Source: an uncultured delta proteobacterium (GTDB lineage: Bacteria > Desulfobacterota > Binatia > Bin18). Taken from it: a stretch of 64,000 nt of DNA. Position 1 is the first letter of the stretch. Every line of letters starts with the position of its first letter. A model generated the notes under the pieces. The model was not told where the DNA came from. It did not search any database and saw only the letters and a list, made by a program, of their open reading frames with translations. Positions 20,584-53,858 of the stretch are shown piece by piece. The position numbers and the translations under genes are program-made. The stretch spans positions 1-64,000 of the forward strand of contig CAVTCR010000007.1 in NCBI GenBank assembly GCA_963733195.1. Reading direction: 5' to 3'.

Positions 20584-20651
20584 AAGGTAATACCGGCGGT
20601 CCGCGCTGTCTGTGAAATTCGTGCTACAAATGTTGGAATCGTGCGACAATC
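20584..20651 (-). promoter_or_regulatory. conserved AraC-type promoter element, copy 1 (heads DUF3309-CsbD-holin-DUF3618)
   Basis: Plus-strand core GTCTGTGAAATTCGTGCTACAAATGTTGGAATCGTGCGACAATC (20608-20651); -10 TACCTT at 20589-20584. Confidence 0.8.
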
Positions 20652-21120
20652 GGGGAAGAAAAGAGGGAAAGATGTCCCCACAGCGCACCTAGTGTTTGCG
20701 GTTCGCTCAGTCGTGCTGAATCTTTGAACGGAAAAGAATTCTTGTTAGAGCGCCGAGAGATCGCGCAAGCTCCGGCCTTAGCTTTTCTGTTTGAAGACGA
20801 TCTTAGAAACCCTCACAGCTACGAAATGTCAAAATTATCCTCACAAAGCTCGAACGTTATCTAACACGCGGCAAGCGCTAGCGGTGGGACTCCTCTTGGA
20901 AAGGGCTGAACTGCGGATGGAAGAGTTGGCAGCGCTTTGCCCTGGCGACTCCTACAGCGCGCCGCGCGCCCGCGGGAAACGAAAAGATAAGAAACGAGGC
21001 GATCGTACACCTCATTTTTGAGTCGTGTGGGTAATTTACGTGGTTGAATAGGGCTGTACTCCGCATGGATATTGGCTTGCAAGTATTTTCTAGTGCGCTC
21101 GGAATTGGCATCCTGGGCGC

Positions 21121-22350
21121 ATGGCTACCTCAACGAAACGAGCGGCGGTTCGTGGATGCGTATGCCTTCCCGGGTTTTCGTCGTCCCCCGCGATACGCGG
21201 GATCTTTGGCGATCCGAAGGCGTGCGTTATTGATCTGGTCCGGCTGTATAAAACAGCCTGCGGTTGCTGTGGTCGGATTTACAGTGGGTGGTACGATCGC
21301 CGCACCCGGCGCGCGCGCGATCTGTCTGTGGCGATCGCCGCGTCTACCTGCAATTTGAGGTTTGGCGTGTGCAGTGCAAGAGCTGTGGCGTGGTGAAGCG
21401 CGAACGGCTCGATTTTCTGGCCGCCAACCCCTTCTATACCCAGCGCTTCGCTCACTACGTCGAAACATGTCGCTCGGCGACGATCAAAGAGATTGCCGAG
21501 GAACTGCACCGGGATTGGGACACGGTCAAGGCGCTGGAGAAGCAGTACATGACGGCGCAAATGGCCAAGGCCGGAACGCCCGGGCCGCAGGTGATCGGCA
21601 TCGACGAGATCGCGATTCGCAAGGTCACACCTACGCATCGTGGTTACGATTTGATCCGATGGCGAGCGATCTGGTTTGGCGACGAGGTTGCTCGGAAGCG
21701 ATCTTGGGCAGTTCTACGAGTGGCTTGGCCAGAGGAAGACTGCGAGATTCGGCTGGCGGTGATGGACATGTGGAAGCCGTTTTGCAATGCGACTACGACG
21801 TATGCGCCGCAAGCGGCGATCCTGTTCGACAAGTTTCACATCATGTGTCATCTGGGCGACGCCCTCGACCAGGTGCCAAGGCCGAGTATCGGCGGCTCAG
21901 TGGCAAAGACCGCGCTACATCAAGGCAGAAATATACGCTGCTCTCGCATCGAGAATCGACGCGCCGCGCGCACTTGAAGGTCCTGCTCGCGGCGACAAGC
22001 GGCTGCACACCGCCACTCGCTCAGGAGACCTTCGGCCAGCTCTGGGACTACGAGCGCGAGGGCTGGGCACGGCGCTTCTTCGAGCACTGGCTCGCGAGCC
22101 TGAAATGGCAACGGCTCAAACCCTACGAGAAGTTCGCGTTGATCGATCGTCATTGGGATGGTATCGCCGCGTACTGCGAGCCCGCGAACAAGGTCTCGCT
22201 AGGCTTCGTCGAGGGGCTCAACAACAAGATTCGGGTCATCCAGCGCCGCGCTTATGGTCTGCGCGACGAAGAGTATCTGCGCTTGAAGATCCTCACCTGT
22301 ATGCTGCCGCCCCTGTGAAAACATCAAATTTTACCCACTCGTTTTCCTGA
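21121..22350 (+). mobile_element. ISL3-family transposase, heavily frameshifted
   Basis: VIGIDEI, MDMWKPF, FDKFHI, HWDGI, VEGLNNKIRVIQRRAYGLRDEEYLRLKI. Confidence 0.85.
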
Positions 22351-22488
22351 TTTTTATTCTATGCCTTGGGATTCTATCGTGGGTTACCTGTTCGCTCCGC
22401 TCGCAAATGATGAATAGAAAAAACGATGAACGCTGAATGATGAACGATGAATAGAGACGAAAGACAGCTCCTGGTTCTCATTCATAAT

Positions 22489-25400
22489 TCATAATTTCCC
22501 CCCCCCCTTCATGATTTCACTAATTGTGAATAAAAATGTAGATCCTTGCTCCGGCAGGGACTCCACCCAAATGCGCCCGCCGTGGCGCTCGACGATCTTC
22601 TTGCAGATTGCCAGGCCGATGCCCGTACCGGGGTACTCACGACGCGTGTGTAAACGTTGAAACACTTGAAAGATTTGCTCGGCGTGCTGCGGAGCAATGC
22701 CAATGCCGTTGTCGTGTACGGCAAACCGCCAGTGACCATTCTCCTTCCGGGCGGACACGTGAGCCCGCGCCGCGGCGGCGCCGCGGAACTTCAGCGCGTT
22801 CCCGATGAGGTTCTGAAAGACTTGGCCGAGGAGGGTCACGTCGCCGCGCACGGTCGGGAGCGGGTCATGGGTCACCTCTGCGCCGCTGTCTGCGACTGCC
22901 AGCCGTAGGTTGTCCAGGGTCTGCGTCAGCAGCGCTTCGCAATCCACCGGCTTGAATACGTCCGTGCTGCCGCCCACCCGGGTATAGGCTAGTAGATCTT
23001 TCAGTAACTCCTGCATGCGTTTAGCGCCATCGACCGCGAAGGCAATGTACTCATCGGCCTCGGCGTCCAGTTTTCCCTGGTAACGCTTGGCCAGCATGCT
23101 GACGAAGTTGGCCACCGTACGCAGGGGCTCGTTCAAATCATGGGAGACGATGTGGACGAACTGCTGCAATTCTCCATTCGAGCGTTGCAGCGCGGCTGCC
23201 TGACACGCGAGCTCCTCCTCGAGGCGTTTGCGCTCGGTGATGTCCTCAATGGCCAATAAGATCAGCTCCGTGTCGGTTGTCTGCGTGAAGACCTTCCGGG
23301 CATTGAGCCGCATCGTCTTTCGCCCGATATGAGGAAACTCGCACTTCAACTCAAAATCATCGAAGCCGCGATTCCCCACGTGCATCGCTCCTAACAGTTG
23401 GTGCAGTTCAGGAAGGTCCCATTGTCCACTGCCTAACGTGTAGAGCAAGCGGTCCTGTATCTCTGCGGGTGCGACCTGGAAGACCTGGTAGAATGACTGG
23501 TTCGCGGAACGCACATGGAGGGTCGCATCCAGCACCAGCAGGGGATCGCGGATCGTGTCTACGAGGCTCTCGGCATAGGCTTGGGCGATATGAGCAGCCT
23601 CTTCTGCATGTTTCAGGTCCGTCACGTCAACAAACGTCAGGACTACGCCGTCAATCACATGATCGATCGTGCGGTACGGTATAATGCGCATGAGATAATC
23701 GGCGTCGGCGTCCACCGTGTGCAGGGTGCGCTCGTGCCTGGAGAGCGTGCTGAGCGTGTCTCTGGCGTCGCTGATCAAGTCACTCCCGACGAAGCGCTGC
23801 GCCAGGTCGGTGAAGGGCCGGCCGACATCACCGGGGAGCAGCGGAAAGAGCGTACTGGCGGCCGGCGTGAAGTTTCTGATACGCAGTTCCCGGTCCAGGA
23901 AAATCGTCGCGACCTGCGTGCTGTCGAACAGGTTCTGCAGATCACTGTTGGTGCGGTCGAGATCATCGACCTTCCGTCTGAGCTCGGCATTCACCGTCTC
24001 CAGTTCCTCGTTAAGCGACTGGAGTTCCTCTTTCGAGGTTTCAAGCTCCTCGTTAGTGGATTGAAACTCCTCATTGGCAGAACCCAGCTCCTCATTGGTG
24101 GTTTCAAGTTCCTCGATAGTGGTTTGTAAGCGTTCCCTGGTGACCTGGAGTTCGTGCTCAAGGGACCGAAGATGGGCGTCCTCCGGGCCGAACGGAGGCG
24201 CATCGCGCCGCGGCGTGCGTCGGTGATGCTCGGCGGGGCCGACGTCCTGGAAGATGATCAGGTACAGGGAGGAGTCGTCGACGTGCTCGGTCATCGGCTG
24301 AACGACCAGGGTAATGGGCTGCACGTCGCCGTTGGTCTGGACCGGAATCTGCTCCCGCACAACCCGCTGATGCGTCGTCACCGCCTGCTGCAGGGCGGTG
24401 CGCAGCGGCAGCCGCAGGCCCGCGCGGGCCATGTTAATAACGTTGACGTTTGGCGTTCCGCTGGGCGGTTCGAGGTAGCGGCCGGTGCGGCCGGAGAAGT
24501 ACACCACCTCGCCTTGCTCGTTGGTCACGACGCAGGCGGGCGCATAGTAGTCCAGAATCGTTCGCTCGGCGAGGGCGCCGATATTACGGGCAGCGGCGGT
24601 GCGGGTACGTTCCGACTCTTCCTCTTGCCGCTGCGGGGGCCGGCGCACGTCCGAGAGCGGGAACTCGACGAGCTGACGGGAGACGGTGTCCTTCTTCTGG
24701 AAGAGGCGATGCTTTTTGTCGAGGGTGCGAAACAGTGCACTCTGCCCGGTGAGGGTCTCTGACGGCCCGAGAAACAGATAGCCGCTCGGACGCAAGGCGT
24801 AATGGAACAGCCGCATCAGCTTCTGCTGGAGTTCGGGGCCCAGGTAAATCAGCACATTCCGGCATGAAATAAGGTCCAGCCGCGAGAACGGCGGGTCCTT
24901 GACGAGACTGTGCACTGAGAAGAGGCACATCTCGCGCAGCTCTTTCTTCACCTGGTATAGATTGTCATGCTTAACGAAGAAGCGTTCCAGGCGCTCGGGA
25001 GTCACCTGTTCCGCGATGCCCAACGAGTAGCAGCCCTTACGGGCATTCTCCAGCGCCTGCTCGTCAATATCGGTGGCAAATACCTGAACTCGCGGCGCGA
25101 CGGCGAGCGTGGCCAGGTGTTCACGCAGGAGGATGGCGATCGAATAGGCTTCTTCTCCGGACGCGCAGCCGGACACGCCTACGCGCACCTGGCCGTCGGC
25201 GCCCTTGTCCGCGAACAGCGCGGGAATGACCTCTCGCTCCAGGGCCGCAAAGGCCTCTGGGTCACGGAAGAACTGCGTCACTCCGATCAGCAAGTCCTTG
25301 AAGAGCAAGTCGAGTTCTTTGGGGTCCTGTTTGAGGAGCGCCAGTAGGCATCCACGGCGTCGAGTTGCAGCACCTGCAAGCGGCGCTGTATACGGCGGAC

Positions 25401-26159
25401 GACGGTGTTCTCCTTGTACTGGCTGAAGTCATGTCCGGTCTGGCGCTTGAGTAGCCCATGGATCGTATGTAGGCGATCGCCCACCTCAGGGTGGGATCCG
25501 GTAGGGCCGTTGGTTGCACGGAGCGCGGTCAAGTGCGTGGAGTATTCTATCAGCTTGGCCGGCATCTCCTCGACTGGGAGGATATGGTCCACCAGCCCCG
25601 TGGCGATGGCGCTGCGTACAAGGCTGTCATACCGGGCCGATTCCGGAGTCTGGGCTATGGCGATGCCGCCGTGTTCCTTGACCGCCCTGAGGCCAAGGGT
25701 GCCATCGGCGCCGGCGCCGGAGAGGAGGATACACACAGCGTTCTCGCCCTGATCTTCGGCCAGCGAGCGGAAGAAGTTATCAATGGGCATGCGGTGGAGG
25801 CGGGGCTCAATCGGAGGCGACACGAGGTGCAGCACGCCGCGGTCGATAGTCAGAGTAGTGTCGGGCGGAATGACATAGACATGATTAGGCTCAACCGGCG
25901 TTTCCTCCTCGATCTGCCGTACAGACATGCGGGTGTACTTCGCCACCAGTTCCGGTAGGAGGCTCGCATGGTCAGGGGCGAGATGCTGGACGAGTACGAA
26001 CGCCATGCCGCTCTCAGGCGGCATCCGCGTAAAGAACTGCTCGAACGCCTCCAGGCCGCCTGCGGATGCGCCCAGGCCCACGATGAGACACGACGCGCGC
26101 GTCCCCCATGCCGCCTCGGCCCGCTCAATGGCCGATGATTCAGGGTCCTTCTGGATCAT
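22489..26159 (-). CDS. CheB methylesterase-CheR methyltransferase-PAS-histidine kinase fusion (frameshift near 25345)
   Basis: GASAGGLEA, GAGADGTLG (CheB); GCASGEEAYS, DLISCRNVLIY (CheR); NEELETSKEELQSLNEEL coil; PAS domains; SHDLNEPL H-box; GTGIGLAICKK. Confidence 0.92.
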
Positions 26160-26559: not shown

Positions 26560-26865
26560 TCATAAGAACTTGGCCAGATACGCGAAGAGGTCCGGGGCCA
26601 CAGCAAGTTCTTGGAGGTGGTACCGCCACGCCGGCTTATCAAGATCCTGGACCAGGGTGCCGCCGCTATCAGTGGGAACAACGATGCGGTGTGCTTCTCC
26701 CCAAAAAGCTAGCGCGAAGCCCCGGTTGAACAGCACCATATTTTCGTGCCCCATATGGATGAGGTCCTCAGCACGGCCCAGTACAAGAGGTTTCCAGTCG
26801 GGGTTGTTCGCCCTAGCCTTGACCAGGGCCCGCTGAAGAATTTCGACGTTACTGAGCGCTTGCAT
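26560..26865 (-). CDS. hypothetical protein, copy 1 (101 aa)
   Basis: MQALSNVEILQRALVKARANN...GFALAFWGE...AWRYHLQELAVAPDLFAYLAKFL; AGGAGG RBS; paralog at 32851..33156. Confidence 0.75.
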   Translation of the reverse strand: MQALSNVEILQRALVKARANNPDWKPLVLGRAEDLIHMGHENMVLFNRGFALAFWGEAHRIVVPTDSGGTLVQDLDKPAWRYHLQELAVAPDLFAYLAKFL

Positions 26866-27376
26866 TAGGAATCCTCCTACCGTCAACGAGCAAGTCCGAT
26901 ACTTTCATGACGTCTCCCATGCGCGCTTTCCTTGGCCAGGAAAAATTCTCGTCAGAGTCACCCTCATGCTCTGCAGGATGCGATTGACTGGTGGCCAGCG
27001 TGAGCAGGAGAGCTGATTCCTCAAGGGCTTCGACCTCGTGGCGAATCCCTGCCTGGAGTGCGAGCATTTGCCCTTTCTTGAGTGTAACCGGCTCTGAATC
27101 GGTACGAACTTGCAGGCGACCCTCGACAACCTGCACACTCAGCGGGCTTTCCGCCTGATGTGAAGGAATCGCGGTACTCGCGTGCATGACGATAAGCACC
27201 ACCCGCAGTCCATGATCCTTGAGCAAGGTCATGGCATTGCGCTTTCCGGTGCGCCACAGATCTTCGTGCTTAAGTTGCGCCAGCAGCGTTGGGATATCGA
27301 ACGTTAAGAGTGGAGCGTCCAGGGAATACTCGGTCAAGGAACGTTCTGTTGTTGTCTGATGTCTGTCAAGAGCCAT
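26849..27376 (-). CDS. cupin domain protein
   Basis: SHQAESPLSVQVVEGRL...GIRHEVEALEESALLLT cupin motif; the 3' end may be over-extended. Confidence 0.8.
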   Translation of the reverse strand: MALDRHQTTTERSLTEYSLDAPLLTFDIPTLLAQLKHEDLWRTGKRNAMTLLKDHGLRVVLIVMHASTAIPSHQAESPLSVQVVEGRLQVRTDSEPVTLKKGQMLALQAGIRHEVEALEESALLLTLATSQSHPAEHEGDSDENFSWPRKARMGDVMKVSDLLVDGRRIPNASAQ

Positions 27377-27578
27377 ATCCTTCCTCCTTCTCTACGACTG
27401 GCCGCCAGTTGCCCCTTAGTAACCTTTCTTACTCGTGAATGGCGTAGCACGTGACCGCTGACGGACCTGACGGGTATTATCGGACTGCCTGCGTGACCTC
27501 CTCCAGGGGTACGGAGAAGCAGCAGGTGAAGAAAAAAGAACGTGTTGAAGCCAGAACCGGTTCCACTCGTTCCTTCGA

Positions 27579-27618
27579 AAAGTAACGCAGGCATCCCGCG
27601 CCGTCTGTGACATTCCTG
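27579..27618 (-). promoter_or_regulatory. conserved promoter element, copy 2 (proximal half-site only)
   Basis: GTCTGTGACATTCCTG at 27603; -10 TACTTT at the same spacing as copy 1; the distal half-site is replaced by the end of the upstream gene. Confidence 0.65.
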
Positions 27619-27635
27619 TTTTTGAACTGGCAAGC

Positions 27636-28022
27636 TTATGTTTGAAAGTACTGGCGGACTTTTGCCGCAATCTGCCGCTCGGTCATCTTGTCCTCTGTTT
27701 CCACCTCAACGATGCGCGCCCCAAGCTTCTCCTTCTCCAGACGTTTTTTGAGCTCGCCCTTTGCCTCACCCGGACCCAAGAGCAGAATGGCGTCAGCCTC
27801 ACGAATCTCCGCGATGACCTCGTCATAGTATCGGTTGAGATGCTCCGTAAAGCGGCGGTCTCGCTGATCCTCTCCCGAGCGATCTCCTGATTTCGACCCA
27901 CCGGAAAAGCGGACATGCTTCTCCATGTCCGCTTCTATGTGTCGCGTTTCTTCTCCGTGCTCTCCGAGAGTCACGATAATCGTCTCCCGGTGGTCAATCC
28001 ACAACCCGATTTGTTTTTTCAT
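27636..28022 (-). CDS. host-attachment / eRF1-like (baeRF) protein
   Basis: GLWIDHRE, ILLLGPGEAKGEL, ETEDKMTERQIAAKVRQYF. Confidence 0.75.
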   Translation of the reverse strand: MKKQIGLWIDHRETIIVTLGEHGEETRHIEADMEKHVRFSGGSKSGDRSGEDQRDRRFTEHLNRYYDEVIAEIREADAILLLGPGEAKGELKKRLEKEKLGARIVEVETEDKMTERQIAAKVRQYFQT

Positions 28023-28785: not shown

Positions 28786-28977
28786 TCAGGCGTTCTTCAT
28801 TGTGTCCGCCGCCCTCTCTACTTTTTCCTTCACCTTCTCTGCTACCTTTGCCGCTGTTTCCTTCACCTTTCCCACCATTTGATCTCGCTGTCCTTCTCGT
28901 TTAAGGCTTTCGTCATCTGAGAGCGCCCCTGCTGCCTCTTTGATCCGTCCTTTGACTTGGTCCATCTTGCCACTCAT
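28786..28977 (-). CDS. csbD: CsbD family protein (63 aa)
   Basis: MSGKMDQVKGRIKEAAGALSDDESLKREGQRDQMVGKVKE. Confidence 0.9.
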   Translation of the reverse strand: MSGKMDQVKGRIKEAAGALSDDESLKREGQRDQMVGKVKETAAKVAEKVKEKVERAADTMKNA

Positions 28978-29149
28978 TGTCGTTTTCCTTTCGTTCACTG
29001 ATGTAACTCGCGTGCGGGTCGCACCAAGTGGTTGTGCGGCGACGTGCGCCGCGTTGTTGATGAAATAGTGCCGTTCTGTACGTGTCTGTCTCCAGTAGAG
29101 CCTGCCGATACTGCCCGACGCATAATGCAGGCGTAGCGAGCCAAGACGG

Positions 29150-30199
29150 TTAGTTCTTGGCGGTGGTGAGGCGCAGCTCGTTCTCAACCGCGCGTACGCC
29201 CGGGACCGCACGCGCCGCCACTGTCGCCTCCAGGCGTTGCGCCCCAGTGGGGATGGTCCCCATCAGCCGCACGACACCGTTCTTCACGTCCACCGTAATG
29301 TCCTTGAACTCTAGGGTAGCGAGTGCTTTCTTGACGTCGCGCTCGAGCTCCTCGTCCCGCACCTGGCCCGCGGCCTGCTTGACGCTCGCGACGACCTGCA
29401 GTTCGTTTTCCACATGCTTCACCCCACTCACCTTGTGGGCGTCGGCTTCAGCCGCCGCCTTCGCTTGCTGCGAGGGCACGATCCCGAAGAGAGTTACCAC
29501 TCCCGCCCAGGTGTCCACATTGATGTCGAGTGCCGGGGTTTGGCTGTCAGCTAGCAAGCGCATCCTGATGGCTGAAGTGAGCCACATGTCGCTGGCCGTC
29601 TCCCACATGCCGTGCTCTTCGCTGGATGCTGGCGGCGTGGACTCACGCCAGATCTCCGCATCGGCCAGGGTCTCAGGACTCTGCACCTCACTGGCGATCC
29701 GGCGCACGCCTGGGATGCCAGCCACCACTTCGATGGCGCGCAGGTCCGCGCTTAAGGTCTTGGCCGTGCCACCCAGGAGCACTACGCCCTTGTTCACTGA
29801 CTGGACGGTGATCTGGCTGCTCTTGAGGGAGGAATCGGTCTGTAACCTTTTCTCGATCCGCTGCTTGAGCGCATCATCGGACACTTGTATCGCCTGCGCG
29901 TGCTGTGGAGTAACCACCTGGAGCAGATTGTGCACGCTCTTCACGCCGTCGATCTGCTGGGCGATGATCTCGGCGTGCTTCTTCTCCACCGTAGAGCCTA
30001 CCTTGCCGTGTAGGGTGACTTGTCCCATGACAGTATCCACCTTGATGGCGGTTCCGCTCACACCCTCTGTGGTCAGGAGGGCGAGTTTGGTCTTGGTTGT
30101 AATCCAGGCGTCTGGCGTAGCCGCCCAGGCTGGGGTGGCCAGCGCTACGCCTACGACCACTACGAGTAGGCTGGCCCGAAGCCATGAGATTCTCTGCAT
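29150..30199 (-). CDS. BON-domain protein (OsmY-like, four BON domains)
   Basis: Signal peptide, then DAWITTKTKLAL..GQVTLHG, DDALKQRI..GVVLLGG, DMWLTSAIRMRL..GVVTLFG, DEELERDV..GVVRLMG. Confidence 0.9.
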   Translation of the reverse strand: MQRISWLRASLLVVVVGVALATPAWAATPDAWITTKTKLALLTTEGVSGTAIKVDTVMGQVTLHGKVGSTVEKKHAEIIAQQIDGVKSVHNLLQVVTPQHAQAIQVSDDALKQRIEKRLQTDSSLKSSQITVQSVNKGVVLLGGTAKTLSADLRAIEVVAGIPGVRRIASEVQSPETLADAEIWRESTPPASSEEHGMWETASDMWLTSAIRMRLLADSQTPALDINVDTWAGVVTLFGIVPSQQAKAAAEADAHKVSGVKHVENELQVVASVKQAAGQVRDEELERDVKKALATLEFKDITVDVKNGVVRLMGTIPTGAQRLEATVAARAVPGVRAVENELRLTTAKN

Positions 30200-30403
30200 A
30201 AATCTTCTCCTGTGGGTTAAAAGTGGATTGTAATGTGAAGGTAAGCCGCGCAACTGGATTGTCGCTACGCCATGAAGGAGCCGCCGCAGTGTCTCACTGG
30301 AGGGTGCTGTGGCAGCCCGAAAGTGGCAGGAGAGATGTCGTCTCTGTGTCTGCTCTCGATTCTTTGCCCTAGCTCTCTGCCAGCCAGATCCGGGCGGCAC
30401 CAT

Positions 30404-30553
30404 TTAGAGTCGTCCAGCGAAGAGCAGCACGAGGACGACAACGACCAGCACCCCGGAGAGGCCCGAGGGCATATAACCGTACGAATGATAGCCCCAGTTG
30501 GGCAGACCGCCGAATAGGAGCAGCAGTAAGATGACTAGCAATAATAGACTCAT
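30404..30553 (-). CDS. DUF3309 family small membrane protein, second paralog
   Basis: MSLLLLVILLLLLFGGLPNWGYHSYGYMPSGLSGVLVVVVLVLLFAGRL*. Confidence 0.85.
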   Translation of the reverse strand: MSLLLLVILLLLLFGGLPNWGYHSYGYMPSGLSGVLVVVVLVLLFAGRL

Positions 30554-30641
30554 GATAAGTTACCTCCGTCATAGTAAGTTGTTCTGGTGCGAAGGAAAAA
30601 GAATACATTGAAGACAGAACCGGTTCTTATCGCTCATCCAG

Positions 30642-30709
30642 AAAGTAACGCAGGTGTGTCGCGTCGTCTGTGATATTCCTGCTGCAAATGTTGGAATCGT
30701 GCGATAATC
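30642..30709 (-). promoter_or_regulatory. conserved promoter element, copy 3 (heads DUF3309-BON-CsbD)
   Basis: GTCTGTGATATTCCTGCTGCAAATGTTGGAATCGTGCGATAATC at 30666; -10 TACTTT. Confidence 0.8.
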
Positions 30710-32182: not shown

Positions 32183-32494
32183 TTAACTACCAGCCTTCTT
32201 CGCTTCGATCTTGTTCGCTACGGTTTTGCCATCCTTCGTGTCGGTGGTCACCGTGACCATGTCGCCCACCTTCACATCGGTGAGCCCGCACGTTTTGCCT
32301 TCACAGGTGATGGCCGCATCAGAGGCCACCTCATGGGTGTGTTGATTCTTGTCCGCCATATCCGTCATCGTCAGCTTGCCGACGCCAACCTCGACTACCT
32401 TCCCTTCATGCATGGCCGGTGCGCTTCGGCAGCCCAACGCCCCCATGGTCAGCGTAAGGGCCACAAAGAATACTGACAGCACTCTCGATAACAT
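32183..32494 (-). CDS. putative lipoprotein (OB-fold-like)
   Basis: ALGC lipobox; EGKVVEV..KVGDMVTVT. Confidence 0.7.
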   Translation of the reverse strand: MLSRVLSVFFVALTLTMGALGCRSAPAMHEGKVVEVGVGKLTMTDMADKNQHTHEVASDAAITCEGKTCGLTDVKVGDMVTVTTDTKDGKTVANKIEAKKAGS

Positions 32495-32725: not shown

Positions 32726-32793
32726 AAGGTAACGCAGGCCTTCCGCGCCGTCTGTGAAATTCCTGCTACAAATGTTGGAATTCTGCGACAATC
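32726..32793 (-). promoter_or_regulatory. conserved promoter element, copy 4
   Basis: GTCTGTGAAATTCCTGCTACAAATGTTGGAATTCTGCGACAATC at 32750; -10 TACCTT. Confidence 0.8.
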
Positions 32794-33156: not shown

Positions 33157-33355
33157 TAGGAATCCTCCTACCGTGTGAAATTCGTGGGGTTTTTAGTAAA
33201 TCTGCGATGATGCCCGGCAGCGCGGTCGTAAAGCACCGAGCAAGTCCGACAGAGCCTGAAGGATGGGTGTGATTGGCGTTCCTCCGATAGCGACACTGTC
33301 TTAGCAAACGCCAATCAACGTTCATATGTCTATTAGGAGCACCCTGGCCACAGCG

Positions 33356-33628
33356 TTAGGCGATACGGCTTGGACTACTACGCATGAAGCTCGCCAACCA
33401 CAGCAGCACGGAGGACCCTATGATAGCAGTCACCCAACTCCCCATATTCCAGAACCGGTAGGGATCAGGATCCTGGGTGAACATTGCCCATAAAAAGCCG
33501 CCGAGGACAGCGCCGACCACGCCAACAATAATATTGAGCAGGATGCCTTGCTGGGCGTCGGTGCCCATGATTTTACTAGCAATCCAACCGACCAGACCGC
33601 CGAAGATTAACCAACCGATGATACTCAT
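33356..33628 (-). CDS. GlsB/YeaQ/YmgE stress-response membrane protein
   Basis: MSIIGWLIFGGLVGWIASKIMG..GILLNIIVGVVGAVLGG. Confidence 0.9.
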   Translation of the reverse strand: MSIIGWLIFGGLVGWIASKIMGTDAQQGILLNIIVGVVGAVLGGFLWAMFTQDPDPYRFWNMGSWVTAIIGSSVLLWLASFMRSSPSRIA

Positions 33629-33827
33629 ATGTCTATCCTTTCTAATGTAAATCCGAGAGAGATGGGTAACAGTGGCATAGTCTTTTTCATGTCTTTTCTC
33701 CTTGACCCCTGAGAGATTCTCACTCTCAAGGCTCTGTTTGCGTTGGTTGTAAGGTTGAATAGATTCGTCAACTGCGTGAGGGAAAAGGGACACGTTAGAA
33801 CAGAACCGGTTCTGCTTGTTAAGTAAG

Positions 33828-33895
33828 AAGGTAATGCCGACGGCCCGCATTGTCTGTGAAATTCTTGCTACAAATGTTGGAATCGTGCGATAATC
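33828..33895 (-). promoter_or_regulatory. conserved promoter element, copy 5
   Basis: GTCTGTGAAATTCTTGCTACAAATGTTGGAATCGTGCGATAATC at 33852; -10 TACCTT. Confidence 0.8.
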
Positions 33896-34154
33896 GTGCC
33901 GGAGAGAGGAAAAACGCTCTTAATAACTAGACGTAATATTTACACTCATATCATGACAACAGCGGCGCCTCTTCGCCTTCCTGCTTAGCCAGCGACAAGA
34001 ACAGCACACCCTTCAGAGCCTCGAAGAAAGCAATAGTGCGTACCCCACGAGAGAGCTGTGTAGGGATAACAGTCTTATGCAAGGAGGATTTCCCCATCCT
34101 CATTCGATCACGGCTTCCACGCTCTCTGCCGGTGGTAACGTTATTCACGTTCCA

Positions 34155-40245: not shown

Positions 40246-40339
40246 ATACTTTCCTTTCGGCTCTCCGCATCGTCTTGTCTGCATGTGCGGACGCTGGCGA
40301 GGGTCCCGAGCCAGGCGAGGCCCCTGTCTGTTTGTTCAC

Positions 40340-40407: not shown

Positions 40408-40614
40408 GTACAGCTAAGTACAAGCCACAGGGATTCTAATGGAGTGTCATTCAGAGGAGCAACGCGAAGAATCTTCTTGGAGGGGCAGAGGGGGAGATTC
40501 TTTGCCTTCGCTTTGCTGCGGCTCAGAATGGCTGTACCCCTCAGCTTCTCTGTGACTGTGCTTAGATCCTCAGCTCTAGAGAAGGTCAAGGATCTCGAGG
40601 TTTTTGAGAGTTGC

Positions 40615-42240: not shown

Positions 42241-42881
42241 CGCGATTTCCACCTGCCCCAGGCGACAGGATACAGATAGATTCCTTATGTGAGATTATAA
42301 AAATAACTCTTTGTTAGTAATAATGTCCTGTGAAGTTGCTCGCTTTCCCTGTCGACGGCTGAGGAAGCGCCTGGGCGTTGTTGTTGGAATGGGACAGCTA
42401 TCGCAGGTGACATCGTTAAGAGTTCTCTCCCTTCCTTCTACCCAATACCCCGATTAACGAGACTCATATTGTTATCGCTTGACCAGTGCGGAACAGCAGT
42501 ATTCCTACGGACGCTGTTGCACAGGAAAGCGAACTGGAAGCAGGAGACTATGACAGCGCTGCATCCATACTTCCTCGTGATGCCAGGCCACAGCCAGAAA
42601 GATCCCCAAAAGTGGGCCATAGATAGTCATAAGCCCCAGGCCAAACAGGAAAAGCGCGCGCGTCATGGTTTACCTCCTCAGCGAGCAGCAGTAAAAAGAA
42701 AAATATAGGCCGTCGCCAATATGCCGACCGAGACCAAGACATCAAATAGTTCCAGACTGCCACATCCTTTCTGGTGTGATTTTCACCCTTTACCTTTGCG
42801 GCTCTCCGCATCGTATTAATGTCACGAGCGGCCGCCGGCGAGGGTCCCCCAGACAGGCGAGACCCTTTTCTACTTATTCAC

Positions 42882-42949
42882 AATGTAACGCTGATGCCCC
42901 ACATCGTCTGTGAGATTCGTGCTACAAATGTTGGAATCCTGCGACAATC
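42882..42949 (-). promoter_or_regulatory. conserved promoter element, copy 9
   Basis: GTCTGTGAGATTCGTGCTACAAATGTTGGAATCCTGCGACAATC at 42906; -10 TACATT. Confidence 0.8.
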
Positions 42950-43356
42950 GTGCCGGGGGACGTTTGGCGGACAGCGGACAGTTACCGGAGGGATACCTGG
43001 TGTCCGCTGGCACAGCGTGCCAGCGGACACTGTCGGCGAGCGCACCGACAAGAATTAACTACGCGATTTGTCTCGATAGGGGGTGAAGGTCTGGGCGCCG
43101 TGAACCCGAAAAGAGCGCACTGTAAGTGACTATGCGTCCGTGTAGAGACTGTTTGTCAATGTGCCGCGAGCTCGATGATTGTACGTTGATCACTACATGT
43201 GAATCATTGTCATACTCTTGTTGCGTGCCTCCAGACGGCCCGGGGACTGCGAAGCGCTTGGGACGCTCCCGAATTTCTTTGACAACGTCCACTTCATGCT
43301 TAGATTCTATGGTACACACAGACTCAGCACGACTGAGCAAAAGGAAGTAACCAGAA

Positions 43357-44298: not shown

Positions 44299-45943
44299 TT
44301 ACGTCCGGGAGAAAGACTGGCAAGCGTTTGCATTCTTGATGGCATACTTTACGTCCGGCACTAATGCAGCGGGAACGCTGAACGACCTGAGCCCTGCTCT
44401 CAACAAACTGGGGATAACATCAATCCGGCCCGCAAGCTCCCCACATAGAGAAACAGGCGTGTCACCGGATTCCCTGATCACTAATTCGATGAGCCGTAGG
44501 ATACTCGGATGGTCGTCGATGAAATACGCCATCACCAGGGGATTCTCTCGACCGGCGGCCATGGTGTATTGGGTGAGATCATTCGAGCCGATGCTGAAAA
44601 AGTCCACGTACTTCTTCAGAGACGGGACTGACAAGGCCGCTGCTGGCGTCTCGATCATCGCACCAAGCCGTGGCAACTTGCGGATGCCCATGTCATCGGC
44701 CAATTGATGGAACCGCTGCGCGACCTGAATCACATCGCTCTCCGTCGTCACCATCGGGATCAGAACTCCAATAGAGAAATGCTGGGATACTTCCAGCACA
44801 GCCCGCAACTGCGCCTCCAACAGCTCGGGATACTCAAGCAGCACACGCACGCCACGCCGTCCCAGAAAGGGATCGGGCTCTGGTGGTAGAGTGAAGGTAG
44901 ATCGGATTCTTGTCGGCGCCAATGTCGAGAAGACGCACGTCAACATATCTGCCTTGTGCCAAGTGAAGACTGTCAAAAAGAAATTCCGCGAATTCTCTGT
45001 CTGAGGGAAAGTGCTTGGTTGAGAGGAAGAAAGGCTCTGTGCGAAACAACCCGATCCCATCAGCACCGCAGTGCATTGCTAGCTCCACATCTTCACGACT
45101 GCGGACATTGGCCATAACCGCGATCTCAATTCCATCCAAAGTAACCGCGTGCGCACTACGACTCACGTGCGCCATCGTCTCCCTGCGCTTTTGCTCTTTG
45201 GTCAAGATCTCTTTCGAACCGTTGCCGGGCGTGAGCGGTTGGGGTTGATCACCGCCGTTCCCTGGTCCCCGTTCACCAGCACGACGTCTCCCGTGTGGAC
45301 AGTTTCTAAGAGTTCAGCAATTCCCCCCACACAGGGAATCCCAAGCTCGCGAGCCAGCAGCGCCGCATGCGCTGCGGGGCCAGCAAATTCTGCCAGGACA
45401 GCGACCGTGGACAAGCGCGAGAGAAACACCGTATCCGAAGGGAGCAAGTGACGGGCGACGAGCACGGTATTCGCAGGCAGGTCTTCGAGGCTATGAGCGT
45501 AAATTCCGGCCAACGACAGCAATAACCTACGGGATAAATCGTCTATATCATCACCGCGCTCCCGAAACATTTGCATTACTCATGTCTCTGAATCTGCGCG
45601 CCAACAGTCTGAATACTGTTCTCACGACCTGCTCAGCATTGATTCTCTCCACTTCCAAGGTTCGTTTGAGTTCCTCCACCACAGAGGGGTCAAGCAGGAT
45701 CTCCTCTTGAGCGCGGAAGATATCCGCCAATTTTTTACCTACCCTCTCCTCAATCCGCTGCGCATCGAGAGTCAGGCTCTGCCGTACATCGTCGATTGCA
45801 TCCTCAATTCGGACCTTCTCTTTCTCGATTTGGGCGTGGTCTATTACATAGAGTTCGGAGTCTCGTTGAAGTATGTCTCTGTAGACAAAAGCCTTCCCCT
45901 GAGCCAGTCCCGGTGAGACACCTTTCCCCACCAATGTGACCAT
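44299..45943 (-). CDS. ptsI: phosphoenolpyruvate-protein phosphotransferase (PTS enzyme I), in four frameshifted pieces
   Basis: GKGVSPGLAQG, AHAALLARELGIP, GADGIGLFRTE, LDIGADK, FLGRRGVR, MIETPAA, SIGSNDLTQY, SLCGELA. Confidence 0.85.
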
Positions 45944-46144
45944 TGTCTCTTTTCTCAACGCTGTCTTCCTCCATTATAGCCCCTTGGCAATCTACTTGGC
46001 CATGATAAACGATTTTGCCTGTAGGGTATCATACTCAGGTCGAAGGTATGAGTATAATAGAGGAAGGAGTGAATACGTAAGTCGGCGGTCCTTGCAGCAC
46101 GGCATATCCTTGAAAATACTGTTCACTCTTCTCTGGAGGATAGG

Positions 46145-48779: not shown

Positions 48780-49334
48780 TCATGCCCTAAGCAAGGAGAA
48801 CGCCAGGAAGTCCTTCAGGATGCTTTCGCTCCCGTCCTCCGCTCCTCCCTCGAGTGCAGGGTTGAGGCGTTGCCAGACTATCTCTCCGTGGACCGACACG
48901 CCTACACTCCAATGAGCCTGTCGGAGGGTAGCGGCATGATACGGATGAGGGGAGGTCAACACGCGGACCGTAGGGGCGAGAAGATCGGCCCGAAAGGGAG
49001 GTGCCGCATCTATTTCAAACTCAATCGTGGGACTCTCCTCTTGCAAACCTCTCACACTCAACAACGTGCCCCGACGCATGTAGGTGGTCGTTCCCTGTGG
49101 ACTCTGGGCGTAGGACAACACGCTCAGGTCAGGGAAACGTTGCGTGTGTTTGAGCGCCTGGACTAATCTGGTGAGAATGCGCACGACTTGATCCATCCCG
49201 TTGACCCAGACGGTCTCGGCTTGGGTTTGACTCAAGCGGCTCGCGTGCTGTTGTTGTTCCTGCGCCTGCGTTTTGCGCTCGGCTATAGCAGCCATCTCTT
49301 GTGCCCACGCGGCCAGGGATCGAGAGTTCTCCAT
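48780..49334 (-). CDS. hypothetical protein
   Basis: 184-aa ORF with AAGGAG RBS. Confidence 0.6.
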   Translation of the reverse strand: MENSRSLAAWAQEMAAIAERKTQAQEQQQHASRLSQTQAETVWVNGMDQVVRILTRLVQALKHTQRFPDLSVLSYAQSPQGTTTYMRRGTLLSVRGLQEESPTIEFEIDAAPPFRADLLAPTVRVLTSPHPYHAATLRQAHWSVGVSVHGEIVWQRLNPALEGGAEDGSESILKDFLAFSLLRA

Positions 49335-49584: not shown

Positions 49585-49935
49585 TTAGGCCAGCGCATCG
49601 CGGGCGTCGTGGACTTCGGGGAGCTGCCCCAGCGCCTGGGCAAAGTGGTGCACGGTGTCGTGATGATCCGTGTCGTCCAGGAACGCCTGCCAGGCTTTCT
49701 TATGAGTCTTCAGAAACGCCTCTCCTTTTGGAGTGAGGCGAAAGGGTGACGCTCCGACCCTGGAGCAGATCAAATCTTTGCGCCACAGCGCGCCGGTCGC
49801 GGCACCGACCGCTGCCTTGCCACGCACGTCGCCCCAATACCAGCCTGAGGTACGTGAGTCCGTCTGTACGGCTTCCAGCACTTCTAAGCAGTGCACTGTC
49901 TGTCCGACATCCATTTCTAATAGTTGGTTCATCAT
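49585..49935 (-). CDS. hypothetical protein (possible winged-helix)
   Basis: 116-aa ORF with GAGGAG RBS; FRLTPKGEAFL. Confidence 0.55.
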   Translation of the reverse strand: MMNQLLEMDVGQTVHCLEVLEAVQTDSRTSGWYWGDVRGKAAVGAATGALWRKDLICSRVGASPFRLTPKGEAFLKTHKKAWQAFLDDTDHHDTVHHFAQALGQLPEVHDARDALA

Positions 49936-50182
49936 AGCTCCTCTTATTTCACGCGCTGTCTGTACACTCGCGTGAGGTTAATGGTGGAGACTCGCGTTTC
50001 TTCGTACTCGATTTTCGCTCTGAAGAGCGAGCCCTACGTTAAGAGTTATCGCACTCGTTCGGTAGCAAAGAGAGGCTTTTGCACTGAGAAGCAGAGACAG
50101 ACCCGACAGAAGATAATCCTCCACCACCGCCAGAGTTGTCCGATATGTCCGCATTTCCTACACATAGTGCCTCGCTGTCTAT

Positions 50183-50647
50183 TTACATGTGCACGCGTAA
50201 CACCCGAGGAGTGGTAACGAAACGGCGAATCTTCTTGAGTGGCACGTTCCTCCAGGACGGGAGGTCCCGCAGTAACGCTTCTCGAACCGCTACAGGCTCT
50301 AGTCCAAGTACCTCACAAATAGATACGAACGCAAATGGCCAGTGGACATCTTCACTCAAAAACCAGGCCTCCGCCTCTTGTGCCAAGCGTCGGCCCCGGT
50401 GTCCTGTCGAGATAAAATGACCTTGCAGACACAGCAGTGCATCTTCCAGTACTGCCCGCATCAGCGCTGCCTCGGGACATAGAGTGCCCACGTTCACACG
50501 AGGGCCGAAGAATTGCTCTGGGAGGAGACTGTCGTCGGGTATTTGCGCACGTCGCCGATTCACAGCGGCAGCCGCGGCGGGAACAGCGCGTGTTGGTACG
50601 ATGCGGAGTAATGGACTGCGGGAAGCGAGGAAACCTGTGGTACTCAT
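50183..50647 (-). CDS. hypothetical protein
   Basis: LLPEQFF..EAALMRAVLEDA..EAEAWF..FVSICEVLGLEP pattern looks like a conserved family. Confidence 0.7.
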   Translation of the reverse strand: MSTTGFLASRSPLLRIVPTRAVPAAAAAVNRRRAQIPDDSLLPEQFFGPRVNVGTLCPEAALMRAVLEDALLCLQGHFISTGHRGRRLAQEAEAWFLSEDVHWPFAFVSICEVLGLEPVAVREALLRDLPSWRNVPLKKIRRFVTTPRVLRVHM

Positions 50648-50740
50648 ATTAGCCTTTTGTCGTGTTCGCCTTGGCAACAATAGTGAGGAGTGAGGTACAA
50701 TAGGACTGCTTCGAGAAGAATAGGTGCGTCCTGTCTTCTT

Positions 50741-51958
50741 TTACCTTTTTACCACCACCAGTTCCAAGCGACGGTTTTTCGCCCGTCCCTCTTCGGTATC
50801 GTTTGACGCGCGGGGATGGGCCTGGCCGTAGCCCGCGGTCGTCAGGCGGGGTGCGTCAATTCCTCTACGAATTAGCGCGGCTTTCACTGCTTCCGCTTGG
50901 TCCAGGGATAACTTCGTGTTACCCGCAATGTCACCCCTGCTGTCACTATACCCGTCGAGCTGCACCTCCGTCGTTGGATAGGCTGTCAGGATGGTGCTCA
51001 GCTCCTTCACGGTCTGTTCCGACTCAGGCGTTAGGGTTGGTGTGCCGGAGATGAAGTAGACATGGTCAAAGACAAAGGTCTTGGGAACTACCGTCGCCGT
51101 GGCGTCTCCTAAAAACGTGGCGAGGTTGGAGGTAAAGGAGCCTGCTCGCAAGGAGAGGACGGCTCCATCTGGTAGCGTGACCGTTGAACGTGTTGTTGGC
51201 GATCCCAGTGCAAGTTTTGCTATCTGGGGTGAGGCGGATGTCCGTAGCAGCGTAGCCTCTGTCCCTTGTCCCCATAACAAATAGACCACACTCAGCGCCA
51301 CGACGCCGAGAAGCAGTGCCCACCATGGCGGCCACGCACTTCTTTCGCCTCTTTTTTCCCACGTCGCCCACGTTTTTTCGTTCGGTGCCATCCATGTTGT
51401 CGTACCAGGACGCTCTGCGCCGAGATTCGTCCCAAGAACGCTGGCCAACCCCGCCGGCGCTAGTTCCGCGATGCCCTCCTTCTGGCCCAGTAGCAACGTT
51501 GTGAGCCCGACAGCGTTGAGTCCCTGCGCCGTCCGTGCGCGCGCGACAACACCCAAGACCACGGGTGCCGCTAGGCTCAGCAGAGACGACGCAGAGGTAT
51601 TTTTGATGCCACTTGACGTGGTAATCAACTCACTCACGGCAGGCAGCTTACCAGCGAACACCAAGCTCAGAATGTTCCGGCCGGAGCTCATCATCCTCTC
51701 CGCTGTGTTGCCCTCATTCAGCAAGCCAGACAGGTTGTTTAAGACATTCCCATAATCGCCGTGGGTGATGAGATCAACGAGTTGGGTGGCACCGCTTCCG
51801 GAGGAAGAGAAATTCATAACGCCAGCGAGCAGGGTGGGCAGAACCTCGTCGACGGCCTTTTGCGTATTGACCGGGCTCTCACCCAGGAGCGAGCTGAGAT
51901 GTTGCACCATATCGGGAGTCAACTGTGTTTTGATATCGCTTAACAAACTTGTAGCCAT
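50741..51958 (-). CDS. DUF937 + OmpA/MotB peptidoglycan-binding domain protein
   Basis: N-terminal helical DUF937-like region, TM helix, C-terminal DGYSDSRG..NTKLS..GYGQAHPRASNDTEEGRAKNRRLEL. Confidence 0.88.
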   Translation of the reverse strand: MATSLLSDIKTQLTPDMVQHLSSLLGESPVNTQKAVDEVLPTLLAGVMNFSSSGSGATQLVDLITHGDYGNVLNNLSGLLNEGNTAERMMSSGRNILSLVFAGKLPAVSELITTSSGIKNTSASSLLSLAAPVVLGVVARARTAQGLNAVGLTTLLLGQKEGIAELAPAGLASVLGTNLGAERPGTTTWMAPNEKTWATWEKRGERSAWPPWWALLLGVVALSVVYLLWGQGTEATLLRTSASPQIAKLALGSPTTRSTVTLPDGAVLSLRAGSFTSNLATFLGDATATVVPKTFVFDHVYFISGTPTLTPESEQTVKELSTILTAYPTTEVQLDGYSDSRGDIAGNTKLSLDQAEAVKAALIRRGIDAPRLTTAGYGQAHPRASNDTEEGRAKNRRLELVVVKR

Positions 51959-52106
51959 AGATTCCTTCCTCTGAGAGACTCCAGGCCTCTCTGCAAATGG
52001 TAGGGTGGGCACCCCACGTGCGTATCGGCAATGGGGTATTGAGAAATCGGTAACGAGAACGCTACTTACGAAACGCTTCTCGTTTCGGGTGCCTATTGGT
52101 CCCTAG

Positions 52107-52174
52107 ATAATAAGCTCAGCATTCTGCGGCGTCTGTGAGAATCGTGCTGAAAATGTTGTAATCTTGCGATAATC
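52107..52174 (-). promoter_or_regulatory. conserved promoter element, copy 10 (most diverged full copy)
   Basis: GTCTGTGAGAATCGTGCTGAAAATGTTGTAATCTTGCGATAATC at 52131; -10 TATTAT at the same spacing. Confidence 0.75.
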
Positions 52175-52688
52175 GTGTGGGGGAGAGGAAAGAGCATCAG
52201 TCCTGATGTACGAGCGCACGCGCAGCTTCTGGTAGACCTGGTTTTCGTTTTAAGGCCAAATGTCGGTTTTTTGGGCTGCCCTGCTCCGCGTATGGGTTCC
52301 TTCTCCCTGTGGGGGAAGGTCACGGATGAGGGAAGCAAGAAGCAAGAAGTCCCTTGTTTCACCCCCTCACCCTAAGTACAATCGTCAGTGTGAGAGGATG
52401 AGGGGTTGTCATTGCGAGCTAGCGAAGCAATCTCTGTGGAGGGAGTGTGGGTTACAGAGATTGGCTTAGGACGTCGCTCACGCTCCTCGCAACTGAACCC
52501 CTCAACCGACCACCCGGACGCAGCTACCTAAATGCGCCAGGCCCACACGAGCGTCTAGGGCACACGACCGATACCGAAACCGCTCATCCTGAGCGTACCG
52601 CAGCGAAGTCGAAAGGCGGGCAGAGATCTTTACGGCACATCTCATTTAGGTTCACTATATGTCTGTTAGGAGCACTATGACCGCAGCG

Positions 52689-52958
52689 TCAGGCGACACG
52701 ATTTGGTCTCCGCATGAAGCTCACCAACCACAGCAGCAAAGAGGACCCTATGATAGCGGTCACCCAACTCCCCAGACTCCAAAACTGATAAGGATCGGGA
52801 TCCTGGGTAAGCATTCCCCATAAAAAGCCACCGAGGACGGCGCCGACAACGCCAACAATGATATTGAGCAGGATTCCTTGCTGGGCGTCGGTGCCCATGA
52901 TTTTACTAGCAATCCAACCAACCAGACCGCCGAAGATTAACCAACCGATGATACTCAT
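52689..52958 (-). CDS. GlsB/YeaQ/YmgE membrane protein, copy 2
   Basis: Near-identical to 33356..33628. Confidence 0.9.
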   Translation of the reverse strand: MSIIGWLIFGGLVGWIASKIMGTDAQQGILLNIIVGVVGAVLGGFLWGMLTQDPDPYQFWSLGSWVTAIIGSSLLLWLVSFMRRPNRVA

Positions 52959-53109
52959 ATGTCTATCCTTTCCAATCTAACAGCAAATCCGCATTGGACA
53001 GCTAAGCCGTCACGTTTTTCGAGCATATCGCGCAGCCACTTTGTTCTCTTTGTCACTAGAAGTTTACTTGACAAGTCCCACTAACCTCCTGAAGGACAGA
53101 CCACAGGAA

Positions 53110-53322
53110 TTACTTTGTCTTGTCAGTGACGGCACGATCGAGTTCTTTCCCGGCCTTCTCTGCCGGCCCAGGCGGATTCACCGCGTCTTTCATCTTTTCA
53201 ACCGCTTGGTCGACCTCTTTGCCAGCCCGCTCGGCTGGTCCTTGACGCTCACAGCCGGTAGCCAGGAACGCACCACCGATTATTAGTGTGGTACCCAATA
53301 CTATTGCTGCGATCTTTTTCAC
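53110..53322 (-). CDS. small lipoprotein, copy 2 (GTG start)
   Basis: Near-identical to 36802..37014. Confidence 0.8.
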   Translation of the reverse strand: MKKIAAIVLGTTLIIGGAFLATGCERQGPAERAGKEVDQAVEKMKDAVNPPGPAEKAGKELDRAVTDKTK

Positions 53323-53383
53323 TGTGATTCTCCCTTCTGCTCCGCACGCGCTGTCTGCGTGTGCAGTTTTTAATGACGTGCTT

Positions 53384-53563
53384 CTAGAGTTCGTGCTTCA
53401 CGACCGATCCGTGACGCCCGGTGATCAGGCTGACGGTGGACCCGACTAAAAAGACGACAAACAAGATCCAGGCGATATGACTGGCAGTCCCGGCTAAGCC
53501 AGTAAATCCTAGTACAGCGGCGATCAGTGCAAGAATGAGAAACGTCATTGTCCAAGTTAACAT
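53384..53563 (-). CDS. DUF1328 small membrane protein, copy 2
   Basis: [40 protein letters not shown]...VVKHEL*. Confidence 0.85.
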
Positions 53564-53791
53564 AAGGTTATCCTCTCCTTTCTGTAATGAGAGTGCTTAC
53601 CAAAAACGTCCAAGTCCAGTTCAACATGTAATGACCCTCCTTTCTGTGTTTTTTTGCTATTCGTGTGGTGTTCCGGTGACTTGCTGATTGCGGACCGCAT
53701 TACTTCACCTGCGCGTGCGGCCACCGACTGTGGTCTCGTAGGGAAAGGGTGAGGGGTCCGAGCCAGGCGAGACCTTTTTCTACTTGTTCCC

Positions 53792-53858
53792 AATGTAAGC
53801 TGGTGGTGTGCGTCGTCTGTGAGATTCCTGCTACGAATGTTGGAATCCTGCGATAATC
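53792..53858 (-). promoter_or_regulatory. conserved promoter element, copy 11
   Basis: GTCTGTGAGATTCCTGCTACGAATGTTGGAATCCTGCGATAATC at 53815; -10 TACATT with a spacer 1 bp shorter. Confidence 0.8.

Follow-up and report, generated by a model that had tools for sequence, protein, structure and literature searches.

GadX/GadW and MarA/SoxS/Rob are AraC-family activators of stress-protection gene sets, and in the E. coli acid fitness island the Gad genes are clustered with their own regulators. Gene sets of the kind described below are under sigma-factor control in other bacteria (RpoS, SigB, EcfG). At the Pm promoter, according to passages of PMC5481539, the activator XylS recognizes two 15-bp direct repeats, each made of box A (TGCA), N6 and box B, and the sites of activator and RNA polymerase overlap. 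The DNA analyzed here is the opening 64,000 bases (64 kb, 55.8% G+C; hereafter the window) of contig C7 of GCA_963733195.1, a genome assembly of 6.95 Mb in 87 contigs (G000). It carries a repeated 44-bp element which, together with a fixed spacer and a TAYnnT -10 hexamer, very probably forms a shared activator-dependent promoter, called here the cassette. It also carries a gene for an AraC-family protein (38092-39048), which we hold, by a modest margin, to be the cassette's probable activator.

Ten full copies and one half copy of the element lie in the window, on the minus strand and upstream of genes. Each of the 11 positions named in an initial annotation of this DNA carried a minus-strand copy when the window sequence was inspected again. 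The cassettes are the following; in the text, a copy is named by the lowest coordinate of its element (20608 for the first line).

20584-20651, minus strand: cassette copy 1 (44-bp element, 18-nt spacer, TACCTT -10), heading DUF3309, CsbD-domain, Holin-X/YqjE-like and 155-aa (amino acid) genes
27579-27618, minus strand: half copy (proximal repeat, spacer, TACTTT -10), upstream of the cupin gene 26849-27376
30642-30709, minus strand: cassette copy heading DUF3309 (30404-30553), 4xBON (29150-30403) and CsbD (28786-29211)
32726-32793, minus strand: cassette copy heading a 103-aa lipoprotein-like open reading frame (ORF; 32183-32494), with low-complexity ORFs downstream
33828-33895, minus strand: cassette copy heading the Transgly_assoc (GlsB/YeaQ) gene 33356-33628
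36130-36197, minus strand: cassette copy heading a 36-aa membrane peptide ORF (35978-36088) and probably an AI-2E family transporter (34155-35615)
37482-37549, minus strand: cassette copy downstream of the AraC gene, heading DUF1328 (37088-37255)
40340-40407, minus strand: cassette copy heading dps (39742-40245)
42882-42949, minus strand: cassette copy heading a 53-aa ORF (42505-42666) and a PAS histidine kinase (40615-42252)
52107-52174, minus strand: cassette copy with a TATTAT -10, heading DUF937-OmpA (50741-51958), a 165-aa ORF (50183-50680), a 116-aa protein (49585-49935) and a 184-aa ORF (48780-49334)
53792-53858, minus strand: cassette copy with a 17-nt spacer, heading DUF1328 (53384-53563), a 70-aa lipoprotein-like ORF (53110-53322) and Transgly_assoc (52689-52958)

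The distal-repeat pattern (GCANGATTCCAACA, up to 2 mismatches) matched the window 15 times against 1.73 expected matches, and none of 100 shuffles gave 15. Eleven of these matches fall within the 10 full copies, the 52131 copy being matched twice; the remaining four, with 2 mismatches each, lie outside the copies (10758, 16765, 35829 and 60358). Over the whole 6.95-Mb genome, a 37-nt pattern recovered 18 full copies: 10 on C7, in the window, seven on contig C22, where they form a second cluster (45994-69360), and one on C62. Allowing up to 6 mismatches in that pattern added no further genomic copies. All 18 lie on the minus strand of their own contig, and each copy is followed by a same-strand ORF with a Shine-Dalgarno-like sequence, with leaders of ~40 to 230 nt. 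The initial annotation had seen no copies elsewhere in the window, which is correct, 8 further copies lying in the genome outside it. It had also named, as a sign against its own reading, a motif frequent genome-wide in both orientations; the genome instead holds 18 copies, on one strand per contig.

An exact proximal-half-only copy occurs once in the genome, at 27603. There (window 27579-27640) unrelated sequence takes the place of the distal repeat, and the proximal repeat, the -10 and a leader of the class A type described below are intact, which makes it a natural single-repeat variant usable in a reporter test.

Several G000 copies were duplicated recently together with their leaders and genes (37506/53815, 20608/33852, 52131/C22:60001 and 42906/C62:203545), an ISL3 transposase lies within the island, and G000 has the highest copy number. 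These observations would suit copies left behind by segmental duplication, or by a small mobile repeat, with no regulatory role in common. We consider such an origin highly improbable as an explanation of the pattern, since the same cassette heads at least 13 unrelated gene families, its orientation is constant and its distance to the -10 is fixed, and the element is conserved nearly base for base in 7 genera while its flanks diverge. The duplicates inflate the tally of 18, yet they leave the spread over unrelated genes unexplained.

The architecture of the promoter was read from 48 unique copies pooled from G000 and its relatives. Their consensus is ACGATTGTCGCAnGATTCCAACATTTnnAGCAnGAATnTCACAGAC, followed by 18 nt that are GC-rich and partly conserved and then by TTACnTT, and the information profile is high over both repeats and the TTA of the -10 and low between them. 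Of 49 unique copies from G000 and relatives, 45 have TAYnnT placed exactly 18 nt downstream of ACAGAC (per-position background 0.4%), and of 94 copies on metagenome contigs, 91 have it there. The initial annotation had described the spacer length as fixed in 10 of 11 window copies, and this holds: ACAGAC is 18 nt from the -10 in 10 of the 11 and 17 nt from it at 53815.

Within the element, the direct repeats GTCGCAnGATTCCAACA and GTAGCAnGAATYTCACA are offset by 20 bp and strongly conserved across the 48 unique copies. Each is bipartite, (C/A)GCA-N6-CAACA and AGCA-N6-TCACA, and spans 15-17 bp. One detail of the earlier description had to be revised: the repeats had been placed 21 bp apart, whereas a count on the copy sequences puts their starts 20 bp apart. 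The cassette contains no recognizable -35. With TAYnnT set at -12 to -7, the element covers ~-74 to -31 and the two 17-bp repeats ~-70 to -54 and ~-50 to -34, the latter position following from the fixed 18 nt to TAYnnT. A pair of homologous, bipartite direct repeats separated by roughly two turns of the helix is typical of class II promoters of the AraC/XylS type, and the cassette has such a pair, at a period of 20 bp.

Alternatively, the conserved block could be read directly by the holoenzyme of an alternative sigma factor, as an extended promoter that needs no activator. The genome encodes 13 Sigma70_r2 proteins and the spacer is partly conserved and GC-rich, both of which would agree with this. 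The conserved region, however, reaches from ~-74 to -31, far upstream of sigma contacts, and is made of direct repeats; the sole conserved downstream element is the housekeeping-type TAYnnT; and none of the 13 Sigma70_r2 genes lies on C7 or C22. The distance from GGAAT to the -10, ~24 nt, exceeds the spacing of promoters of the extracytoplasmic function (ECF) type. We therefore hold direct reading by a sigma factor to be improbable. Readings as ECF/EcfG or sigma-54 promoters were rejected on spacing, by a count against their consensus sequences. An alternative-sigma stress regulon would have a shared promoter of alternative-sigma consensus and a dedicated sigma or anti-sigma module; what is conserved here is the upstream direct repeats and a TAYnnT -10, on contigs (C7 and C22) with no Sigma70_r2 gene. 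The initial annotation's claim that the set is not driven by an alternative sigma factor agrees with islands that contain no sigma-factor gene.

We scanned relatives with a 33-nt pattern at up to 3 mismatches, for which reversed-pattern controls gave 0 matches. The element occurred in 12 of 41 genomes counting G000, that is, in 11 of 24 other members of the family and in none of 16 genomes from other families of the order and class. When all 55 family genomes were scanned, it was present in 15, with 84 matches in 7 of 10 genera; it was absent from the 28 genomes of genus g8 and the 8 of genus g3. An exact-match scan of metagenome contigs returned at least 120 stretches; the 80 loci analyzed further carried 95 copies, with dps as the commonest downstream gene (23), followed by CsbD, BON, PAS kinase and GlsB.

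The system behaves as a unit in these comparisons. G002, a 100% complete genome of the same genus, has neither a copy nor the AraC gene. CsbD gave no hit in the motif-negative genomes G002, G009, G015 and G017, and both CsbD genes of G000, the only two in that genome, lie in the window island. Island-type Dps, searched at E 1e-15 or better, gave no match in 5 motif-negative relatives; the 4 of these that were scanned with the Ferritin family model contain other ferritin-family genes. In these comparisons the stress genes come and go with the promoters and with AraC, and the system is a self-contained accessory stress island.

The AraC gene of the island and the features that separate it from dps are the following.

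38092-39048, minus strand: AraC/XylS-family regulator of 318 aa, counted from M16 of a long ORF, with a C-terminal double helix-turn-helix (HTH) domain
39429-39448, minus strand: terminator-like hairpin with a T tail, between dps and the AraC gene
39261-39234, minus strand: sigma70-like promoter match for AraC

Because the hairpin and the sigma70-like match stand between dps and AraC, the latter probably has its own promoter. The protein matched the Pfam families HTH_18 (81.1 bits, cut-off 33.6) and HTH_AraC (56.6 bits, cut-off 26.6), a profile search returned 25 AraC-family DNA-binding domains from the PDB, all within query residues 214-322, and an AlphaFold2 (AF2) model built on a 7-sequence alignment reached a predicted local distance difference test score (pLDDT) of 75-95 over the DNA-binding domain. 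It therefore carries the two-HTH DNA-binding domain of the AraC/XylS family. N-terminal residues 1-237 gave 0 Pfam hits, with AF2 pLDDT below 50. Atlas look-alike clusters with AraC_binding (scores 0.90-0.91) are only a lead. Among NCBIfam equivalog models, all 25 of those listed scored below their cut-offs, the best being AraC PRK10572 (71.8 bits vs 208); GadX reached 26.5 vs 500 bits, SoxS 44.7 vs 174 and MarA 32.5 vs 202.

Full-length orthologs of this protein, at 42-59% identity, were found in this family only. The initial annotation had proposed a check of co-occurrence. Of the 55 family genomes, 10 have an AraC ortholog; all 10 carry the motif, and the 40 motif-negative genomes yielded no ortholog. 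We also examined 79 loci (1.13 Mb) around relatives of the AraC DNA-binding domain in a collection of species-representative genomes. Eight of them contained the motif, all among the 10 closest AraC matches (L023-L032), and none of the 69 more distant ones did. All eight have a same-strand copy at a distance of ~50-500 bp past the AraC match (the gap in G000 is ~540 bp), and at four of the eight dps comes after the copy. In the metagenome set, an AraC-like match stood beside a copy at 9 of 80 loci, and the order AraC, cassette, dps was seen again in independent contigs. Near the distant AraC relatives (loci L032-L101), stress genes showed no comparable synteny.

C-terminal remnants of AraC were also seen just upstream of cassettes, at C22:60152-60343 of G000 (L103 ~4150-4350), where the remnant adjoins the C22:60001 copy, and at L144:1295-1507. 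Over the final ~65-70 residues of the protein their identity to it is 72% and 61%, and they look like traces of duplication of an AraC-cassette unit. G024, a genome with only 2 copies, combines the cassette that diverges most (C168:7289-7321; L017, L030) with the AraC ortholog that diverges most, at 42-43% identity, the two lying side by side: the protein is changed in both recognition-helix regions and the cassette carries 5 mismatches, mostly at box-B positions. The pair may reflect co-variation of factor and site, though such cases are few.

Several observations weigh against AraC as the activator. Its co-occurrence with the cassette is not independent evidence, because the gene is itself part of the island. 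An AraC ortholog is missing from the fragmented assemblies of five motif-positive genomes out of 15 (G001, G005, G008, G013 and G070), and in G005 an 18-kb contig holds 6 copies and no AraC. These five assemblies are 74-91% complete in 650-1250 contigs, and in four of them a profile search at E 1e-5 likewise gave no ortholog. Most copies in the AraC-less assemblies are no more than a few hundred bases away from a contig end, as might be expected if assemblies broke at the repeated cassette. The repeat period is 20 bp where the canonical value is 21, and dimerization of AraC is unsupported, as the N-terminal domain could not be modeled. Finally, the conserved 116-aa protein (49585-49935) was found in 11 of the 15 motif-positive genomes and in 1 of the 40 motif-negative ones, often directly behind a copy.

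This protein is the main rival candidate to AraC. The promoter would still be activator-dependent, but the factor would be the 116-aa protein or a regulator from another part of the genome, such as a response regulator of the OmpR/PhoB type that pairs with the PAS kinases of the island; AraC would then be one more gene of the island, or would regulate only dps, locally. The 116-aa protein is present in four of the AraC-less genomes (G001, G008, G013 and G070), and its model shows a helix-helix-helix-hairpin order with winged-helix repressors as the top, non-significant fold matches. It was not found, however, in G003 (100% complete, 6 copies), G005, G016 and G024, it occurs in the motif-negative G014, and it had neither a Pfam nor an NCBIfam hit. 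With a mean AF2 pLDDT of 58 and no Foldseek match against the PDB at E 0.001 or better (best 0.36), the winged helix stays a lead. As for a response regulator, the element can be read as four GATTnnnnCA-like sub-repeats with start-to-start distances of 11, 9 and 11 bp, a pattern reminiscent of response-regulator sites in tandem. Two kinases of the islands lie behind cassettes or inside islands, and the genome has 103 receiver-domain matches. None of these falls within either island, the sole receiver domain on C7 lying at 11.9 kb, outside the island, and a regular array of response-regulator sites would fit the 11/9/11 spacing less well than two bipartite 20-bp units do. An island of such patchy distribution is moreover more likely to bring its own regulator. 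We therefore rate a factor other than AraC as rather unlikely, if clearly the most serious alternative.

The 116-aa protein is 73-92% identical across genera, with three island copies in G000 (49585-49935, C22:58040-58384 and C22:63440-63784) and a weaker fourth match on C3. Its Atlas look-alikes are hypothetical proteins in clusters labeled Myxococcota, Binatota and Methylomirabilota.

With the AraC-family protein as the activator, the system might work as follows. The cassette would be a -35-less, activator-dependent promoter heading ~18 operons of an accessory stress-protection island, whose products are Dps, CsbD, BON/OsmY-like, GlsB/YeaQ, DUF1328, DUF3309 and SPFH proteins, a PAS kinase and others. 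Two molecules of the AraC-family protein would bind the repeats, each through its own two HTH motifs, and the promoter-proximal molecule would contact RNA polymerase, replacing the -35 contact. The divergent N-terminal domain of AraC may sense a signal. Binding of the protein to the repeats is suggested by the linkage described above. Of the AraC-driven, clustered stress regulon put forward in the initial annotation, the shared activator-type promoter conserved across genera and the specific link to AraC are borne out, while binding and activation by AraC keep the status of a proposal.

The gene set named in that annotation was largely recovered with Pfam: CsbD, BON x4, ferritin/Dps, DUF1328 and Transgly_assoc (GlsB/YeaQ) were present, but no DUF883/ElaB match occurred among the scanned ORFs. 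Further families in the window were DUF3309, cupin, AI-2E transporter, PAS histidine kinase, DUF937-OmpA and a Holin-X/YqjE-like protein. CsbD, Transgly_assoc and DUF1328 are each headed by window cassettes twice. The cassettes on C22 and C62 precede genes for an alpha/beta hydrolase, two SPFH proteins, a second Dps, a second DUF937 operon and DUF1207. It is this gene content that suggests the label of general-stress regulon.

Two types of conserved leader follow the cassettes. The first (class A) comes after the -10 and before DUF3309 genes in several genera (window 20489-20577, 30546-30635, 33700-33827 and 27480-27578; also L104:6229-6318, L009, L010 and L103:13205-13294). It consists of a GAACCGGTTC-type palindrome or short hairpin ~15 nt past the -10, a CU-rich tract, a CCCTCA..GAGGG hairpin and a Shine-Dalgarno sequence. 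RNAalifold on six class A leaders gave a weak consensus (-6 kcal/mol, compensatory change in 2 of 13 pairs), and we claim no structure. The second (class B, GAAAAAGGTCTCGCCnGGCTCGGnACCC...) comes after the cassette and before the DUF1328, dps and kinase operons (37300-37480, 53600-53790, 40250-40340 and 42700-42880). Within it, a GATGCGGAGAGCCGnAAAGGA block directly precedes dps-type start codons and was found again in other genera; the class B block could be an mRNA-stabilizing or translational control element. An Rfam gathering scan of the window gave 0 matches, so that no known RNA family accounts for the conserved leaders.

Both islands also contain a module of CheB methylesterase, CheR methyltransferase, PAS and histidine kinase (window 22489-26159; C22 ~50050-54060, equal to L102:10057-14058). 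No partner response regulator lies nearby, and the module could be a sensor feeding the regulon. Several genes of the window seem to be split into overlapping or adjacent ORFs, namely the ISL3 transposase, a PEP-utilising enzyme (3 pieces), a dienelactone hydrolase, RNase II and the CheB/CheR-PAS-kinase module (spans 21264-22318, 44299-45958, 53859-54786, 55741-57856 and 22489-26159). The splits are either assembly indel errors or real pseudogenes. A search for tRNA genes as island borders found 0 in the window.

Four RNA-library runs contained contigs (Logan contigs, 0.10-0.15 of sampled words) that match parts of 33300-43200 at 88% identity or more, and summed depth peaked over glsB, dps and the DUF1328 region. 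They come from relatives, carry-over of DNA is possible, and they give no transcription starts; they are a weak hint that stress genes of this type are abundant in soil and ice metatranscriptomes. In three of the runs the contigs cease matching the window at 39433/39434, at the hairpin past dps. From this end point, promoter, dps and terminator seem to be a module whose downstream neighbor varies among relatives.

The initial annotation knew of no such system. This stands for the motif and for an AraC-controlled CsbD/Dps/BON island, which are undescribed in the open full-text literature searched (titles and abstract openings, with supplements and subscription journals outside the search), but not for AraC-family control of stress gene sets as such. 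Since such control is already known, no principle is overturned. What sets this system apart is the unusual uniformity of its activator-type promoter cassette, in a self-contained stress island that is specific to the lineage. Passages of PMC7660261 report an AraC-family gene and CsbD/BON genes as co-induced in Nostoc punctiforme, with no link between them shown there.

More tentatively, the island may be a portable, complete general-stress or desiccation response of this uncultured, soil-type family, in which an AraC master regulator with a novel sensor domain and a near-identical plug-in promoter cassette, copied to the front of over a dozen unrelated protective genes, take the role that alternative sigma factors have elsewhere, and which is gained or lost as a unit even within a genus; we regard this broader picture as conceivable but less likely than not. 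It would be a case of stress genes, promoters and regulator moving jointly in one accessory island. Should AraC prove to be the activator, nature would offer here a remarkably clean regulon of one factor and one cassette, with 18 near-identical promoters in a single genome, and this regulon would control hydrophilin-type and membrane-protective proteins in a lineage known from metagenomes alone. It would also give a sequence-to-regulator pair for unculturable bacteria that is directly testable in E. coli, and a compact, strongly conserved, activator-dependent promoter that could serve as an orthogonal expression part.

Among known systems, the closest in promoter layout are XylS at Pm and AraC at araI1-I2. 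The repeat layout of the cassette is that of XylS at Pm and of AraC at araI. In both of these systems the activator site reaches into a poor or missing -35 region, as the proximal repeat would here if TAYnnT is the -10, and the protein is, as here, of the two-HTH AraC family. With XylS at Pm, as far as the cited account of that promoter goes, the cassette shares the 4+6+5 bipartite repeat format, box A with GCA, N6 and a 5-bp box B. It is unlike the XylS and AraC sites in its period of 20 rather than 21 bp and in its box B (CAACA/TCACA), and the window protein is unlike XylS and AraC in having an N-terminal domain without a recognizable family. The targets here would be ~18 stress-protein promoters, in place of one catabolic operon.

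The likeness to GadX/GadW and MarA/SoxS/Rob lies in AraC-family activators serving stress genes. None of these is an equivalog of the window protein, the site sequence and gene set are different, and gad and mar boxes vary far more than the cassette does. With the RpoS, SigB and EcfG/PhyR regulons the island shares content, namely Dps, CsbD, OsmY/BON, YeaQ/GlsB and DUF1328; DUF1328 and CsbD are mentioned in an RpoS proteome study (PMC5437024). In contrast to the sigma-controlled stress regulons, the cassette combines a housekeeping-type -10 with upstream direct repeats, has no alternative-sigma consensus, and belongs to an island with no sigma gene of its own.

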